From IMG/VR virus record IMGVR_UViG_2778261641_000005, positions 1-5,269 of that record: 5,269 nucleotides of DNA. One strand, written 5' to 3'. Made by a program: the position numbers and the translations under genes. The notes under the pieces were generated by a model. The model did not search any database. It saw only the letters and a list, made by a program, of their open reading frames with translations, and was not told where the DNA came from. Source of the stretch: a virus (taxonomy: Duplodnaviria > Heunggongvirae > Uroviricota > Caudoviricetes). This document shows positions 1-5,269 of this stretch, one piece after another; positions within the stretch are counted from its first letter, which is position 1; each line of letters opens with the position of its first letter.

Positions 1-852
1 CTGGAAATCCTCGGTACATTCATCGCGGGTGTCTGGGTATCCAAGGTTCTGGGGGCTTTCGGAAAAATATCAGGTTTGCCGGTACCGCCATGGTTAAAAG
101 GCTGGATGGCTTATGCTGCTTATTTGTACTCCGATCGCGAAAATATTGGTGCCAGTGCGAAGTCATCCTGGGATTACACGAAACAAAATATTGGAGATTC
201 ATTGCGCTGGCTTGGCATTGATACCGATTTTGGTCGTAATCCTCATACCGTAAAAGGCGCAAATATTCAGTCAGATATTCCAGGTGCTGAGCCGGAACAA
301 CATGCACAGGCTACGAAGCGAGGAGAACGGAATAACAATCCGGGAAACCTTAATTTTGCTGGTCAGGCGGGGGCTTCTCTTGAACGACCGGGCGGGCGAT
401 TTGCCAGATTTGAAACCGCTTTTGATGGATTACGGGCTCTTGCTCGTCAGTTAATGCTGTACGCCGGACGGGGAATAAACAGTGTGGAGAAAATTATCTC
501 TACCTGGGCACCTGCGTCTGATAATAACAACACAACCGCGTATATCAGGGCTGTATCGCAACGACTGGGAGTGGATCCCCGGGCTGCCCTGAATATGAGC
601 GATCCGCAAACCATGTCAGCATTGATGAGCAGCATTATCCAGCATGAGAATGGAAGAAATATCTATTCTCGAGAGCTGATTAATAAGGCTGCCGTGGCGG
701 GAATTAGTGGCAAAGTGACAGAGGTTAACCAGCAAAATACCTACCATATTTACGGTGGCGGAGATCCGCACGCTGTCGGTAATGAGGTTGCACGTCGGCA
801 ACAGTCTGCAAATGCTCAGGTCATGCGAAGTAATCAGGTGAGGGTGGGTTAG
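1..852 (+). CDS. Probable phage tail tape measure protein, C-terminal part (5' end lies outside the window)
   Basis: Frame 1 is open from base 1 (LEILGTFIAGVWVSKVLGAF... precedes the first Met at 76) and stops at TAG 850-852. A hydrophobic segment near the start is typical of tape measure proteins. It sits immediately upstream of coupled baseplate genes. Product assignment rests on position and composition, not on a search. Confidence 0.55.
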   Translation: MEILGTFIAGVWVSKVLGAFGKISGLPVPPWLKGWMAYAAYLYSDRENIGASAKSSWDYTKQNIGDSLRWLGIDTDFGRNPHTVKGANIQSDIPGAEPEQHAQATKRGERNNNPGNLNFAGQAGASLERPGGRFARFETAFDGLRALARQLMLYAGRGINSVEKIISTWAPASDNNNTTAYIRAVSQRLGVDPRAALNMSDPQTMSALMSSIIQHENGRNIYSRELINKAAVAGISGKVTEVNQQNTYHIYGGGDPHAVGNEVARRQQSANAQVMRSNQVRVG

Positions 853-1439
853 TGGATATTCTCTCTACACTTTTTCATCAGCAGAGCAGAAAAATAGGAA
901 TGATTGTTCCCAGTGTTGTTATTTCAGAGAAGCATACAGATATGCTTGAAATAACAGAGCATCCGGTAGAGGTCGGGGCCGCTGTCGCTGATCATGCCTA
1001 TAAAAAACCGTCAGAAGTGGTGATGGAGGTTGGTTTCGCCGGTGGCGGCGCATTGCTGGATTTTGCCAGTAACCTGACGGCTACCAGCCTGCTCGGCCTG
1101 AGTCCTCAGCAGACGTATCAGGAGCTACTGGATCTGCAGGAAAGCCGTATCCCCTTCGATGTGGTAACCGGTAAACGGCTGTACAGCAACATGTTGATCC
1201 GGGCGCTGGAAGTGACGACGGACAAGACAACAGAAAACGTCCTGTCCGCCGTCCTCACCCTGAGGGAGGTCATTATCTCCCGGACACAGCAGATTACCGT
1301 CGCGGATAAAACCAACATGAAGGAAGGGGCCAGCACGTCGGCGGTACAGAACAGCGGCAACAAAACCACAAAACCTCCAGATACTTCACTGCTGAAAAGC
1401 ATCACGGGTAACGTGGCGTCATTACTGGGGGGCGGCTAA
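852..1439 (+). CDS. Phage tail/baseplate-associated protein of unassigned family (195 aa)
   Basis: GTG start overlaps the upstream stop (TAGTG); purine-rich GAGGGTGGG lies just upstream. Long ORF with coding-like composition, co-oriented and coupled to neighbours. No family recognised with certainty. Confidence 0.7.
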   Translation: MDILSTLFHQQSRKIGMIVPSVVISEKHTDMLEITEHPVEVGAAVADHAYKKPSEVVMEVGFAGGGALLDFASNLTATSLLGLSPQQTYQELLDLQESRIPFDVVTGKRLYSNMLIRALEVTTDKTTENVLSAVLTLREVIISRTQQITVADKTNMKEGASTSAVQNSGNKTTKPPDTSLLKSITGNVASLLGGG

Positions 1440-1741
1440 TGACAATTCAGGAAATTCCGCTGACAGCGGACAACCAGCAGTTCAGCATCGTCCTGGGTGG
1501 TGTCACCTGGCGGATTAGCATCATATGGCGCGATCTGTACTGGATTATGGACCTGCAGAACGACAGAGGGGAGCCGGTAATCTCCGGTATTCCTCTCGTC
1601 ACTGGCGCTGACCTGCTGGCGCAGTACGCCTGTATGGGGCTTGGTTTTAAGCTGGTGGTGGTCTGTGATGACAACACACAGGATTACCCCACAAAAACTG
1701 ACCTGGGCGGTCGCAGCCATTTACTGGTATCAACGGAGTAA
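1439..1741 (+). CDS. Small phage tail assembly/baseplate protein of unassigned family (100 aa)
   Basis: ATG overlaps the upstream stop (TAATG), indicating translational coupling. The ORF fills the gap between neighbours exactly. Confidence 0.65.
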   Translation: MTIQEIPLTADNQQFSIVLGGVTWRISIIWRDLYWIMDLQNDRGEPVISGIPLVTGADLLAQYACMGLGFKLVVVCDDNTQDYPTKTDLGGRSHLLVSTE

Positions 1742-1743
1742 GC

Positions 1744-2808
1744 ATGTCACAGAACTGGATGAGACATTTCGAGCTGCAGCTTGTGGACGGGAACGGTCAG
1801 GGAATTGAGCTAAGTGATTTTAAAGTCACCTTTACGATCGACTGGTTCAACATCAGCAGCGCGTCCCGGGTAGGGACTATCAAAATTTATAACCTCTCGG
1901 CAGATACTGTGAACCGAATCACCGGGCAGGAGTTTTCGAAAGTGCGTCTGATTGCCGGTTACGACGGTATCGCGCCGGAGGTGTCGGCAAGCGACGTCGG
2001 GACCGTGCGGGAAGTTGACGCGGCGGACGTGGGTCAGAGTGATGGCCGCAATTACGGGCTGATTTTCAGCGGAGAAATTCGCTACTCGGTCACAGGAAAA
2101 GACAGCCCTATTGATTCCTATGTCCTGATTCAGGCAGCAGATACGGATCTGGCATTTGCCACCAGTATAACCTCGCAGACGCTGGCGGCCGGTTACACGG
2201 TCGCAGATGTGAACCGTGCGCTGATGAAAGACTTTGAGGCCAAAGGCGCGACCGAAGGACTGACGCCTGAAATGCCTGCTACCGTATTCCCTCGAGGGCG
2301 GGTGCTGTTCGGCATGACACGGCATCTTATGGATAACGTGGCCGGACAATGTGGCGCAACATGGCAATTTGTGGACGGTCAGCGCCAGATGGTGGCGAAT
2401 AACGAGTATGTTCACGACGCGATTGTGCTCAACAGAGCCACCGGGCTTATCGGCATGCCGCAGCAGACTATCGGCAACGGTGTAAACGTCCGCGCTCTTA
2501 TTAATCCGAACATCCGGGTTAACGGGCTTATTCAGCTGGATCAGGCTTCCGTGTACCGCACCGCGCTGTCGAACAATGATATTGCGATGGCTGGTGGGCA
2601 GATCACCGACCAGAACACGGACGGAAATATCACGCTCAGCGGCACCACAGCACAACCTGCCAGCATCGCAACGGATGGCGTTTATATTGTGCGCGGGATT
2701 ATGTACACTGGCGATACAAGGGGCCAGGCGTGGTACATGGATATGATGTGCGAAGCGCGTGGCGCGGCGGATCTTCAAAGTCAAGGAGCAATGAATCGGT
2801 GGGGATAA
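1744..2808 (+). CDS. Putative baseplate hub-like protein (354 aa; gp27/gpD/Mu gp44-like position)
   Basis: GGAG at 1734-1737 lies 6 nt upstream of ATG 1744. The ORF starts 2 nt after the upstream stop. Size and position (after tape measure, before spike) fit a hub protein in a contractile-tail baseplate module. Family not confirmed. Confidence 0.75.
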   Translation: MSQNWMRHFELQLVDGNGQGIELSDFKVTFTIDWFNISSASRVGTIKIYNLSADTVNRITGQEFSKVRLIAGYDGIAPEVSASDVGTVREVDAADVGQSDGRNYGLIFSGEIRYSVTGKDSPIDSYVLIQAADTDLAFATSITSQTLAAGYTVADVNRALMKDFEAKGATEGLTPEMPATVFPRGRVLFGMTRHLMDNVAGQCGATWQFVDGQRQMVANNEYVHDAIVLNRATGLIGMPQQTIGNGVNVRALINPNIRVNGLIQLDQASVYRTALSNNDIAMAGGQITDQNTDGNITLSGTTAQPASIATDGVYIVRGIMYTGDTRGQAWYMDMMCEARGAADLQSQGAMNRWG

Positions 2809-2810
2809 GA

Positions 2811-3275
2811 TTGAATAAGAAAGCCATTTTTATTGCAATAAGTTTACTTGTTCCGATGTCGGGATTATCCGCTCCTGGGAAGTATGAAAAAATGGCTGTT
2901 GATTTAATGGATCAGCAAAAGTTTACGCAGTGGCAACATTACGCCTCTGCTACTCCTTTTTTCGCTATGAATGGTCGCAGATTCGCCATGACCATTGATG
3001 ATTTCGCGGATATAGTCAGCAACTCCTTTCAAGAATGCGAAGACCTGGATGCCTACACCAATCGGAAAGGAGCTACGGATGATTGTAAGTCCTATGTTTA
3101 CAAAGGCATAAAGGAGTGGGTAAACCTCTCTCAAGATAAGTCTGTTAGCGATACAGCATGGAAAATGGGCCAGCGCTATGCCTTCAACACACGTAATCCT
3201 ATTGCCCATAAAAACGCATGGGATTTCAATGGGATGGCGGCCGGTATTCGCGTTGCTAAATCTCAAGGTTATTAA
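2811..3275 (+). CDS. Secreted/periplasmic protein of unknown function with N-terminal signal peptide (cargo gene)
   Basis: Proposed TTG start at 2811 gives MNKKAIFIAISLLVPMSGLSAPGKYEK..., a classic positively charged n-region plus hydrophobic core; GGTGGGG lies 7-13 nt upstream. The open frame reaches back to GTG 2730, but that would overlap the hub gene by 78 nt and bury the signal peptide. The mature part has two Cys (QECEDL...DDCKSY) and no recognised motif. The gene is AT-rich relative to the flanking structural genes. Confidence 0.6.
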   Translation: MNKKAIFIAISLLVPMSGLSAPGKYEKMAVDLMDQQKFTQWQHYASATPFFAMNGRRFAMTIDDFADIVSNSFQECEDLDAYTNRKGATDDCKSYVYKGIKEWVNLSQDKSVSDTAWKMGQRYAFNTRNPIAHKNAWDFNGMAAGIRVAKSQGY

Positions 3276-3344
3276 GTCATGGATGCACCGAAAATCATCG
3301 GTTCTTTCCCGTGTAAAAAAGTGGCTGGGCGATGATTTTTGACG

Positions 3345-3360
3345 TCCATAATATTATGGA
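3345..3360. promoter_or_regulatory. Perfect 16-bp palindrome TCCATAATATTATGGA (candidate operator)
   Basis: The sequence is exactly self-complementary. It lies in the AT-rich intergenic region immediately 3' of a TTGACG hexamer (3339-3344). Confidence 0.5.
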
Positions 3361-3437
3361 TGAACTGTTGCCAATTGCGCTAATTTTAACAAAATAATAC
3401 TGGTTAACGCATTTTTTGAACCATCTGTACACAGTAG

Positions 3438-3466
3438 TTGTCTATACTTTACCTTAAAGGTAAACT
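3438..3466 (+). promoter_or_regulatory. Candidate sigma70-like promoter overlapped by a perfect 17-bp palindrome TTTACCTTAAAGGTAAA (3448-3464)
   Basis: TTGTCT (3438-3443), 17-bp spacer, TAAACT (3461-3466); alternatively TATACT at 3443-3448 as the -10. The palindrome has 8-bp arms around a central A and overlaps the -10/+1 area, about 35-60 nt upstream of the ORF starting at 3501. Hexamer matches are imperfect. Confidence 0.35.
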
Positions 3467-3500
3467 CTGCGCTCCACTGATGTTCACTATGGGAGGGGAT

Positions 3501-3740
3501 ATGAGGAAAATCGTTAATCGTTACTTAGCCGCTGCCGGTAGTGTTATGGACATTATGCCGACTACAGATTACTGGCAATATGCTGCTTCTGGATCTGATT
3601 GTCGGGCAATAAGAAGTGATGTTAAAGTCATTGCAAGTGACATGAACAGAGTTATCAGGTATGAGTTCAAAACCCCGCAAGCAGGCGGCCGTTCTCAAAA
3701 AGCATCAGGAAAACAAAGCGTCGCAAAAAGCCGTTCCTGA
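3501..3740 (+). CDS. Small basic hypothetical protein (79 aa); possible regulator or partner of the downstream membrane protein
   Basis: Strong Shine-Dalgarno GGGAGGGG (3491-3498) sits 2-4 nt before ATG 3501. The frame is open from TTG 3438, but the RBS favours 3501. The C-terminus is Lys/Arg/Ser-rich. The last 80 nt overlap the next ORF in another frame, so reality is uncertain. Confidence 0.45.
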   Translation: MRKIVNRYLAAAGSVMDIMPTTDYWQYAASGSDCRAIRSDVKVIASDMNRVIRYEFKTPQAGGRSQKASGKQSVAKSRS

Positions 3741-4233
3741 TTCGGATGGTATCGACGAAGATATTGATTCCTCGGAATATGATGAGTCTCAGGAAGTAGT
3801 GGAAAAGCTGTCTGCAGTTGCCAACCTTGATCCTGAGCTAAAATCGAAGTTAACACCTGAACTTCTTGAGAGAGTTTCTAAGAACCCGAAGGTTATTGCC
3901 ATGTTTCAGCAGGAGTCTTTTCAGGGACCACTCCCACCTCCTGCTATGCTCTTACAATATAATCAAATATTACCCGGCGGCGCTGAGAGAATTTTCAGGC
4001 TAACCGAAAAAGAGCAAGAGCATAGGCATAAGACGCAAAGTGATGCATTACTTGGTGCGGTTTCACGCGACAAACGTGGGCAATGGATGGGATTTTGCAT
4101 TGCAATGGTAGTGCTTATAATGGCTGCGTTTTTTGCTAATCGCGGTAACACTTGGTTCGCAGGTACTCTTGCTACTTTAGATCTCGTAGGATTAACTACA
4201 GTGTTTGTTTATGGTAGGAAGAAACCTAAATAA
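3661..4233 (+). CDS. DUF2335-like predicted membrane protein (190 aa)
   Basis: Contains FQGPLPPPAMLLQYNQILPGGAERIFRLTEKEQEHRHK, which I recall as the hallmark of the DUF2335 family (motif recall, not searched). This is followed by two predicted transmembrane helices (WMGFCIAMVVLIMAAFFA and FAGTLATLDLVGLTTVFVY) and a basic tail GRKKPK. The N-terminus is a charged low-complexity region. ATG 3661 is the only start in the open frame, and its own SD is weak (AGGT). Confidence 0.7.
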   Translation: MSSKPRKQAAVLKKHQENKASQKAVPDSDGIDEDIDSSEYDESQEVVEKLSAVANLDPELKSKLTPELLERVSKNPKVIAMFQQESFQGPLPPPAMLLQYNQILPGGAERIFRLTEKEQEHRHKTQSDALLGAVSRDKRGQWMGFCIAMVVLIMAAFFANRGNTWFAGTLATLDLVGLTTVFVYGRKKPK

Positions 4234-4248
4234 TCCATACATCCTTTC

Positions 4249-4276
4249 AAACCCGCTTCGGCGGGTTTTTTGCTTT
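4249..4276 (+). terminator. Rho-independent terminator
   Basis: Stem AAACCCGC (4249-4256), loop TTCG (4257-4260), stem GCGGGTTT (4261-4268), running into a T tract (4266-4271) then GCTTT. It lies 16 nt after the TAA stop at 4231-4233. Confidence 0.8.
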
Positions 4277-4290
4277 CTGGAGCCTACTAA

Positions 4291-5043
4291 ATGGCCGTAT
4301 CTGACCAAACCCGCAGCGGCGACCTTGCCGAAACATTCAAATCTGAACGGGAAACCACAAAGAACCAGATCCGCGTCGCTTTGCCTGGCATTATTCAGTC
4401 ATTCGATCCTGACGCGGTTACGGCGGTTGTGCAGCCTGCTATCCGTTACGTTGAGATCGATAACGATGGTAACCGGGTGACAAAACCTTACCCGCTGCTG
4501 GTGGATGTTCCCGTGGTATTCCCAACGGCCGGGGGAGTTACTTTAACGTTGCCGGTGAGCCCCGGCGATGAGTGCGAACTTAAGTTTCAAGACCGCTGTA
4601 TTGATTTCTTCTGGCAAAACGGTGGAGTGCAGGAACCTGTCGACGACCGCATACATGACCTGTCCGACGCCACCTGCTCAGTGGGTCAAATATCTCAGCC
4701 CAACAAAATTAAGAATGTCAGCACCACGTCGGCGCAGCTTCGAAGTGTTGATGGAAGTACGTACATCGACCTTAATCCGGATACGCAGAAAATTAAAATC
4801 GTAGCGCCTGGCGGTCTGGATGTAGTTACCCCGCTGGCCGACTTCTCGGCGAAAGTAACCATTCACGGGCTACTGTCCTGGCTGGGTGGAATGGTGGGGT
4901 CTGTTGCTTCTGGAGTTGCATCCAAAATCACCGGCGCTGTCGAGTTTATCGGTACCGTTAAAGCTAACGGCAAGTCAATTGATGATACGCACACGCACGG
5001 CGGGGTTCAGCGAGGCGGAAGCAACACAGACGGGGTGAACTGA
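4291..5043 (+). CDS. Baseplate central spike / baseplate assembly protein V-like (250 aa)
   Basis: GGAG at 4279-4282 lies 8 nt before the ATG. The N-terminal region resembles gpV/Gp138-type spike proteins. The C-terminus has a Gly-rich region ending in DDTHTHGGVQRGGSNTDG, with a His-x-His motif like the apex of P2 gpV-type spikes. Position is directly upstream of the next baseplate gene. Confidence 0.85.
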   Translation: MAVSDQTRSGDLAETFKSERETTKNQIRVALPGIIQSFDPDAVTAVVQPAIRYVEIDNDGNRVTKPYPLLVDVPVVFPTAGGVTLTLPVSPGDECELKFQDRCIDFFWQNGGVQEPVDDRIHDLSDATCSVGQISQPNKIKNVSTTSAQLRSVDGSTYIDLNPDTQKIKIVAPGGLDVVTPLADFSAKVTIHGLLSWLGGMVGSVASGVASKITGAVEFIGTVKANGKSIDDTHTHGGVQRGGSNTDGVN

Positions 5044-5269
5044 TGCGATACAGACGCGAAGACGCCGACGGTGATTACACCTTTGGCAGCGGCGATGATA
5101 CCTGGCTGATTAACTCACCGGAGGCCGTGGCGCAGGCGGTAAAAACGCGATTCGAATTGTGGTATGGGCAATGGTTTCTCGACACCACCGAGGGGACTCC
5201 GTGGATCCAGTCCGTACTCGGTAAGCAGAAGCCGGAAACCTACAACCTGGCGATCCGTAAGCGCATCCT
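5043..5269 (+). CDS. Phage baseplate protein (gpW/gp25-like position), N-terminal part (3' end outside the window)
   Basis: ATG overlaps the spike stop (TGATG). My own translation gives MRYRREDADGDYTFGSGDDTWLINSPEAVAQAVKTRFELWYGQWFLDTTEGTPWIQSVLGKQKPETYNLAIRKRI with no stop to the window end. It is absent from the ORF track only because it is unterminated. Family assigned by position only. Confidence 0.6.
   Translation, partial: MRYRREDADGDYTFGSGDDTWLINSPEAVAQAVKTRFELWYGQWFLDTTEGTPWIQSVLGKQKPETYNLAIRKRI

Follow-up and report, generated by a model that had tools for sequence, protein, structure and literature searches.

A palindrome at the promoter of an E. coli prophage DUF2335 cassette is probably a repressor operator imported from a Uetakevirus

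Which protein, if any, recognizes a perfect palindrome that sits at the promoter of an accessory gene unit inside a prophage baseplate module? The stretch of DNA analysed here (the window, 5,269 nt) encodes the C terminus of a lytic-transglycosylase tape-measure protein, baseplate, plug and hub proteins and a gp138-type spike, and between the hub and spike genes it carries a small ORF followed by a gene for a DUF2335 protein. A sequence-only reading of the window had proposed that the palindrome is an operator through which this unit is autoregulated or controlled by the prophage, as would suit a defence or exclusion module. The features to which we refer are as follows.

3320-4258, + strand: exchangeable DUF2335 cassette (moron) between the baseplate hub and spike genes, placed by comparison with the E. 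coli prophage loci L003 and L002 and by GC content
3438-3466, + strand: alternative promoter TTGTCT-17-TAAACT of the sequence-only reading, with the palindrome in its spacer and -10
3441-3448, + strand: most likely -10 element, TATACT (3443-3448) with T at -14 and C at -13, judged by the hexamers of relatives
3448-3464, no strand: 17-bp perfect palindrome TTTACCTTAAAGGTAAA, with arms TTTACCTT and AAGGTAAA around a central A
3449-3463: core of the palindrome, TTACC-TTAAA-GGTAA, the Uetakevirus (epsilon15/phiV10-type) Rep operator sequence
3491-3498, + strand: Shine-Dalgarno sequence GGGAGGGG of the small ORF, from the sequence
3501-3740, + strand: small ORF of 79 amino acids, first gene of the unit, left unannotated by PGAP in the E. 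coli records examined (phrog_26284, E 2e-12)
3661-4233, + strand: DUF2335 protein of 190 amino acids with a hydrophobic C-terminal region (PF10097, E 1.8e-18; described by Pfam as a predicted membrane protein)
4249-4274, + strand: intrinsic terminator closing the cassette (8-bp stem with 5 GC pairs, T-run; -15 kcal/mol)

The sequence-only reading had the coordinates of the palindrome, its 8-bp arms and its central A right (TTTACCTT-A-AAGGTAAA). The window has two perfect palindromes whose arms reach 8 bp or more around a centre of 0-1 nt, at 3345-3360 and 3448-3464, and both fall within the 225-bp intergenic stretch 3276-3500. Dinucleotide shuffles yield 0.17 such palindromes per window and 0.008 per intergenic stretch, with a probability of 5e-5 for two or more; the palindrome at 3448-3464 is confirmed to lie beyond chance. 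The first palindrome, TCCATAATATTATGGA, folds at -9 kcal/mol (z = -3.2) with no U-run after it. It is present as a single copy in the 49-kb prophage described below and, cassette copies excepted, has no match at up to two mismatches in the other loci that we fetched, all Uetakevirus loci included.

The palindrome at 3448-3464 reads T-TTACC-TTAAA-GGTAA-A and so fits the consensus (A/T)TTACC-N5-GGTAA(A/T), with A or T at the centre, of a motif shared by the Uetakeviruses epsilon15, SPC32H, phiV10 and vB_EcoP_ZX5. Its core matches the repressor-annotated sites of epsilon15: seven (A)TTACC-N5-GGTAAT sites in RefSeq record NC_004775.2 are labelled 'protein_bind: repressor; lysogeny', an annotation that is itself a prediction. 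A weight matrix trained on 27 Uetakevirus sites, all 27 of which have A or T as the central base, gives the window site 17.1 bits, against 4.4 for the runner-up in the window. This is below the training-site minimum of 20.4 bits, and the site has the minority flanks T...A where the majority are A...T. The epsilon15 genome paper is said to give ATTACCWDWWNGGTAAT as the consensus, in agreement with the annotated sites. A literature search for the motif string returned no match.

In vB_EcoP_ZX5 there are 10 exact and 4 one-mismatch sites, with 0.055 exact sites expected, and all 14 lie outside the genes that were checked. They include sites in the divergent rep/cro region (13822 and 13870), downstream of rep (13048 and 13110) and upstream of the phage's own small-ORF/DUF2335 operon (978). 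The motif is scattered genome-wide in the same pattern in ZX5 and in an E. coli 4/4 prophage, with single sites preceding the integrase, terminase, portal-side, antirepressor and small-ORF/DUF2335 transcription units. Every accessory cassette beside the tailspike, the antirepressor module and the small-ORF/DUF2335 operon among them, has the motif in front of it. We also observed Rep operators directly before integrase, small terminase and portal-side genes in ZX5 (L279; 8026, 19625/19643 and 22756) and epsilon15 (L280; 12 and 2932), and the Uetakevirus repressor therefore seems to act directly on late and integration promoters, beyond the early ones. Over its full length the ZX5 repressor is homologous to SPC32H Rep (PDB 5D50, E 4e-42). 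SPC32H Rep (PDB 5D4Z/5D50) is reported to form a tetramer on palindromic sites that is disassembled by the antirepressor Ant. The ZX5 repressor and its Bro-N antirepressor are functional, as overexpression showed control of the lysis-lysogeny switch, and the epsilon15 rep allele is 42% identical to that of ZX5 (PMC9782041).

We reached a further set of loci (L086-L092) through diverged homologues of the small protein in E. coli; the virion genes of these loci are those of epsilon15/phiV10-like podoviral prophages of the genus Uetakevirus. Each stretch of 5-8 kb in them holds three to four copies of TTACC-N5-GGTAA, where 0.12-0.18 would be expected, and the copies lie between annotated genes, usually ahead of the next cassette. 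Behind these copies stand a LexA-boxed 85-aa gene, an isrK/C4-RNA/Bro-N antirepressor module, divergent inserts and variable cargo that includes the small-ORF/DUF2335 pair. The antirepressor region of L086 has a consensus LexA box, TACTGTATAAATATACAGT (823-842), before the 85-aa gene, which is homologous to the C terminus of the Bro-N antirepressor, and at 1201-1383, upstream of the antirepressor gene, it has Rfam matches to isrK (74 bits) and C4 antisense RNA (79.5 bits). Homology between Uetakevirus prophages with different cargo breaks off precisely where the operator ends on its right side (GGTAA|), both where L091 (5345) is compared with L092 (5312) and in L086 (2205/2206). The conserved -10/operator unit may serve as a recombination joint for cassette shuffling. 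A site-specific recombination site was considered and set aside, since the arms are too short and a conserved functional element explains the breakpoints.

The closest parallel to the window is found where Uetakeviruses carry the same genes. Nine Uetakevirus loci, some from E. coli and some from Klebsiella, have the operator ahead of a small-ORF/DUF2335 operon, and in those nine a -10-like hexamer abuts it or lies up to 12 nt upstream. Abutting hexamers at related sites are TACTAT, TATATT, TAGATA and TAAGAT; in L090, and in the same arrangement in EC.W1-9 and ZX5, TATACT lies 12 nt upstream of the operator. In the Klebsiella Uetakevirus BUCT711 the operator is overlapped by TTGACG-16-TAAGAT, and an unannotated homologue of the small ORF and then DUF2335 come next. 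The 16-nt sequence TTACCTTAAAGGTAAA is identical in the window and in the operator before the 69-aa/small-ORF/DUF2335 operon of L087 and L088, where it is preceded by TACTAT. Similarity continues into the leader: in a global alignment the window leader ...TGTTCAC.ATG.GGAGGGGATATG aligns with the Uetakevirus leader ...TGTTTACATGAGGAGGAGATATG, and the leaders of L087 and L088 align with that of the window as far as the ATG. This short stretch was missed by blastn-short and found by global alignment, and by its sequence the window leader looks homologous to the Uetakevirus leader.

The same comparison bears on the promoter. All three hexamers named by the sequence-only reading are present where it placed them (TATACT at 3443-3448, TAAACT at 3461-3466 and TTGTCT at 3438-3443), and comparison with relatives favours TATACT as the -10. 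TATACT directly adjoins the left arm of the operator, 52 nt before the ATG of the small ORF. The -10-like hexamers of relatives (TATACT, TACACT, TACTAT or TAAGAT) abut the operator or lie a few bases upstream of it, 32-52 nt before the ATG, and loci with the gene pair in Klebsiella, Yersinia, Photorhabdus, Scandinavium and elsewhere in E. coli have TATACT or TACACT as -10, also 32-52 nt before the start codon. Some E. coli variants of the window cassette have TACACT in place of TATACT. The position of TAAACT reads TAAACC or TAAATC in homologous leaders and is not kept as a -10.

TATACT makes a good -10 hexamer but has no -35 element at 16-18 bp, the nearest being TTGAAC (3416-3421) at a distance of 21 bp. 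The earlier proposal of TTGTCT as -35 survives only in part: it cannot be the -35 of TATACT, because the two overlap by one base, and it pairs only with TAAACT, at a 17-bp spacer and with 8/12 matches; the + strand of the window holds 13 matches of this quality, this one included. A generic consensus promoter scan called neither arrangement and instead gave TTGCCA-16-CAAAAT at 3368-3395. T at -14, C at -13 and the lack of a usable -35 resemble sigma-S-type promoters, and by this resemblance the context of TATACT, TCTATACTT, would be sigma-S-like. On the same footing, transcription is predicted to start at about 3455-3457, the centre of the palindrome. The proposal of an operator over -10 and +1 thus holds as to the type of element, which by homology abuts the -10 and covers the expected +1 of a candidate promoter with a predicted start. 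The strong Shine-Dalgarno sequence was correctly recognized (GGGAGGGG, with the ATG at 3501). No canonical terminator was found upstream of the small-ORF/DUF2335 unit.

The unit lies in a low-GC island (2811-4290) that interrupts the baseplate module, with a GC content of 0.39-0.46 in the cassette against 0.52-0.58 in its flanks. The E. coli prophage locus L003 shares window positions 1-3319 and 4259-5269 and carries a 190-aa gene and a YafO toxin gene in between, whereas L002, also from an E. coli prophage, shares 3278-4658 behind a different upstream gene. The cassette is set at 3320-4258 because L003 shares the flanks only and differs in cargo. Insertion polymorphism between conserved flanking genes, deviant composition and a terminator of its own mark the cassette as a moron, and the YafO cassette at the same site ends with a near-identical terminator. 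Related phages of the vB_EcoM-689R2 type match 72% of the window only, in two pieces. The cassette region 3320-3665 was found in 16 complete E. coli genomes only, and because all are at least 99% identical they carry no divergence signal.

The hub/spike junction (2811-4290, and the corresponding parts of L002 and L003) is a hot spot of moron exchange. Its cargos are a 154-aa lipoprotein-like ORF with a TTG start and no family match, a 111-aa protein with a hydrophobic, signal-peptide-like N terminus, the 190-aa gene with YafO, and the DUF2335 cassette; they share a 42-bp linker (3278-3319) and near-identical terminators. In E. coli KSC64 (L001, 719-2962) the prophage is deleted from a truncated head-morphogenesis gene to the baseplate plug gene, which leaves this copy of the cassette in a defective prophage. 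Outside this group of prophages, the small-ORF/DUF2335 operon of the Klebsiella siphovirus vB_Kpn_RAH1 (L004) has another, different palindrome, GTATTGAttTCAATAC (2962-2977), after the -10 and before the Shine-Dalgarno sequence. It is not kept in the closest relatives (L021-L027) and for that reason is probably non-functional.

We studied the prophage type to which the window belongs as a whole in strain PI24 (L034, 49 kb). It combines lambdoid early genes with a myovirus tail and baseplate. The N terminus of its CI matches P22 c2 (1ADR, E 1.9e-39), its OR region has TTAAGA...CTTAA-type repeats with no TTACC/GGTAA, and the window site does not match the half-sites of this CI/Cro immunity region. 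Searches of L034 by tblastn for homologues of Rep and the Cro-like protein found none, and the same was true of other proteins of the Uetakevirus accessory region (the 85-aa protein, the Bro-N antirepressor, the 69-aa protein and others). The motif occurs once in the 49 kb, the next best matrix score being 9.7 bits against 17.1, and nothing in L034 resembles a regulon of many sites with OR and OL operators in clusters. The suggestion of the sequence-only reading that the unit answers to the resident prophage is not supported, given this P22 c2-type CI with TTAAG-type operators, the missing Rep and Cro homologues and the single site, all as seen in the PI24 copy.

We looked for the cognate repressor elsewhere in the genomes that carry the cassette. 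Concatenated queries put cassette-bearing genomes first and gave 16 complete genomes, which do not necessarily include the source of the window. In a megablast search with one rep allele (phiV10/ZX5 rep-OR) and one major capsid gene, a design by which divergent Rep alleles would be missed, neither the phiV10-type rep gene nor the Uetakevirus major capsid gene was present in the matched records of any of the 16. These markers are carried by about 530-540 other genomes, a prevalence of about 10% in complete E. coli genomes, at which 0/16 is not a significant depletion (P = 0.19). All that the search shows is that the cassette and the cognate repressor do not regularly occur together. As its gene was not found in the 16 genomes, repression in the present host is unlikely unless a Uetakevirus is also present.

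Among the alternatives to an inherited and now idle site, the one that fares best is that the palindrome is a live operator in its present host, bound by a host transcription factor or by a resident or co-resident prophage regulator with TTACC/GGTAA specificity, so that the unit is conditionally repressed. The palindrome is perfect, its 8-bp arms exceed the conserved core of 5-6 bp, and its place over the -10 and +1 is well suited to repression; co-residence of cassette and Uetakevirus must moreover sometimes occur, because about 10% of E. coli genomes carry a Uetakevirus. The palindrome is also intact in all cassette haplotypes seen, which might reflect continued use. However, the region has only about 8 variable sites, of which about 0.6 would be expected within the palindrome by chance, so its invariance has no statistical weight and the SNPs are too few to show selection on the site. 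The c2-type immunity of the resident prophage, the 0/16 result and the empty literature search also speak against a live operator, and we know of no E. coli factor that the motif matches. An MqsA-type ACCT-N3-AGGT site was set aside, as the inner T/A positions are not conserved across sites, and the LysR T-N11-A box, the NarL 7-2-7 site and the CpxR or HprR boxes have the wrong spacing or orientation. On balance we regard a live operator in the present host as unlikely.

The palindrome might act instead as an RNA hairpin, with a role in stability, processing or translation, in transcripts that read through or start upstream. Transcripts from the late operon or from the scan promoter at 3368-3395 would include it, and G-U pairs would still be possible with GGTGA and TTACT, the arm variants seen most often at related sites. 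However, the fold is weak (-5 kcal/mol), the 5' UTR folds no better than shuffled sequences, there is no U-run and no Rfam family is matched at gathering thresholds. With TATACT as the -10, the transcript would begin inside the palindrome. We also collected orthologous sites from IMG/VR by anchoring on the flanking sequence, which left the motif itself free to vary. Across about 270 orthologous sites or contigs the arms are nearly invariant and the centre varies freely, with no compensatory changes, and this conservation of the arms extends across unrelated site classes; class B has variants that break pairs (GGTTA, AGTAA and GATAA). Such a pattern is, at the level of sequence, the signature of a site for a dimeric, sequence-specific DNA-binding protein and not of an RNA stem, and a hairpin function is very unlikely. 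A boxB-like antitermination hairpin was rejected, as here the stem sequence is fixed and the loop varies.

Slightly less probable still is autoregulation, the other option of the sequence-only reading, in which the small-ORF protein or the cytoplasmic N terminus of DUF2335 would bind the palindrome like the antitoxin of a toxin-antitoxin-like pair. The arrangement of the genes would suit it. The small ORF lies upstream of the membrane-protein gene and shares 80 nt with its start in a different frame; Klebsiella, Yersinia, Photorhabdus, Scandinavium and E. coli loci have homologues that overlap in the same way. By this sequence comparison the small ORF is a real gene, and the recurrence of the overlapping pair across Enterobacterales suggests translational coupling. 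The neighbouring YafO cassette also has a palindrome, TCGTTTAAAACGA, into which its -10 TATAGT runs directly (L003, 3685-3705); it is probably that cassette's own antitoxin-type operator.

The distribution of the motif does not follow the gene pair, however. The N terminus of the small protein is highly conserved across clades, yet none of the non-Uetakevirus carriers (Klebsiella, Yersinia, Photorhabdus and Scandinavium) has the motif upstream of the pair, and phages and prophages without the pair, among them epsilon15 and L091/L092, retain it at dozens of promoters. AlphaFold2 models the small protein as a low-confidence helical hairpin (pLDDT 64) with no recognizable DNA-binding fold. It has no Pfam match, neither protein has a match in PADLOC or NCBIfam, and a single-sequence search with the small ORF gave no matches, a profile built from locus-derived homologues being needed. 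The DUF2335 protein matches phrog_3996, labelled 'moron ... membrane protein' (E 1.2e-46). A literature search on DUF2335 returned nothing relevant, and the 'DUF2335 phospholipase' of papers on type VI secretion (T6SS) is probably DUF2235.

A chance palindrome can be dismissed almost entirely, for although the region is AT-rich (GC about 0.39-0.42) and the exact 17-mer has 51 matches in IMG/VR, of which about 10 are in the same E. coli prophage and the remaining 40 or so in unrelated contigs of mostly non-homologous context, only the 0.008 palindromes given above are expected in the intergenic stretch, and the core fits a defined operator family that precedes the same operon in Uetakeviruses.

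We consider it probable, from the sequence comparisons, that the palindrome is a Uetakevirus Rep operator that was imported with the moron and is most likely an unoccupied orphan in an unrelated prophage, with binding by Rep taken over from the homologous sites. That it is inherited and at present unoccupied is the most likely reading, since homologues of Rep and Cro and further copies of the motif are all missing from the resident prophage, and no Uetakevirus was found in the sequenced hosts. The operator family has already been described, largely by prediction; what is new is the single copy in an unrelated prophage, which, as far as sequence can tell, marks the cassette as an import from a Uetakevirus.

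In its Uetakevirus home, Rep bound to the operator would cover about -7 to +10 of the cassette promoter, occlude the -10 to +10 region and block RNA polymerase, because the operator abuts the -10 or lies a few bases downstream of it. The small-ORF/DUF2335 operon would then be silent in a lysogen and expressed on infection or after derepression by Ant. The cassette at 3320-4258 has kept the layout of -10, operator and leader (TATACT at 3443-3448, the operator at 3448-3464, then the Shine-Dalgarno sequence and the ATG) and has been inserted, as a moron with promoter and terminator, between the hub and spike genes of an unrelated prophage. There the unit is probably transcribed from its own -35-less, sigma-S-like TATACT promoter, together with read-through from the late (baseplate) operon, and it would be repressible only once a Uetakevirus repressor enters the cell. 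In a less passive version of the same history, the orphan operator would be a working link between prophages, with the membrane-protein module on by default and switched off when an epsilon15/phiV10-type podovirus brings in Rep/Cro; we think this improbable.

The window site can be compared with several known systems. It is like the Rep operators of Uetakeviruses (those for epsilon15 gp38, SPC32H Rep, phiV10 ORF40 and ZX5 ORF21) in its core, in its position abutting the -10, in the downstream operon and in the leader. Unlike them, it stands in another type of prophage, with no Rep, Cro-like gene or second copy, and has T...A flanks. Phage P1 has dispersed C1 operators, including Op51 at the immI (c4-icd-ant) operon. 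Uetakeviruses resemble P1 in having one repressor with many scattered operators, one of them at an antirepressor operon with a C4-type antisense RNA, and the layout of the L086 antirepressor region resembles P1 immI. P1 operators are, however, asymmetric 17-mers and C1 is unrelated to Rep, so that the likeness is limited to regulatory architecture.

Lambdoid morons, as defined in HK97 and HK022, place a gene with its own promoter and terminator between conserved genes. The window cassette is like them in its own promoter region and terminator, its lower GC content, its insertion polymorphism and its location between two baseplate genes. Classical morons are thought of as expressed from a repressed prophage, whereas the window cassette carries a phage-repressor operator and, in a lysogen of its Uetakevirus home, would be silenced. 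In T4-type phages, PeSLs (promoter-early stem-loops) are found at cassette junctions, and the Uetakevirus -10/operator is likewise a short, conserved unit of promoter plus palindrome at such junctions. It differs in that its palindrome is a repressor operator and that a role in recombination is suggested by breakpoints only.

These results change the expected binder of the palindrome, which on our reading would be neither the small-ORF/DUF2335 unit itself nor the resident prophage. They also flag a conserved small gene that PGAP missed in the records examined. The implication is that the small-ORF/DUF2335 genes are repressed in a Uetakevirus lysogen and expressed on infection or induction, a regulation that argues against a default label of lysogenic conversion or defence; an exclusion or defence role for DUF2335 has as its basis a predicted membrane protein in a moron context, and no further support. 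The site also suggests that two common types of E. coli prophage may be cross-regulated. If the working link were true, the immunity protein of one phage would reprogramme an accessory gene of another prophage, here a membrane module, possibly for exclusion, in a myovirus-tailed prophage with P22 c2 immunity. More generally, an accessory cassette can retain the operator of a former carrier phage, and the provenance of a moron can therefore be traced through operators of this kind.
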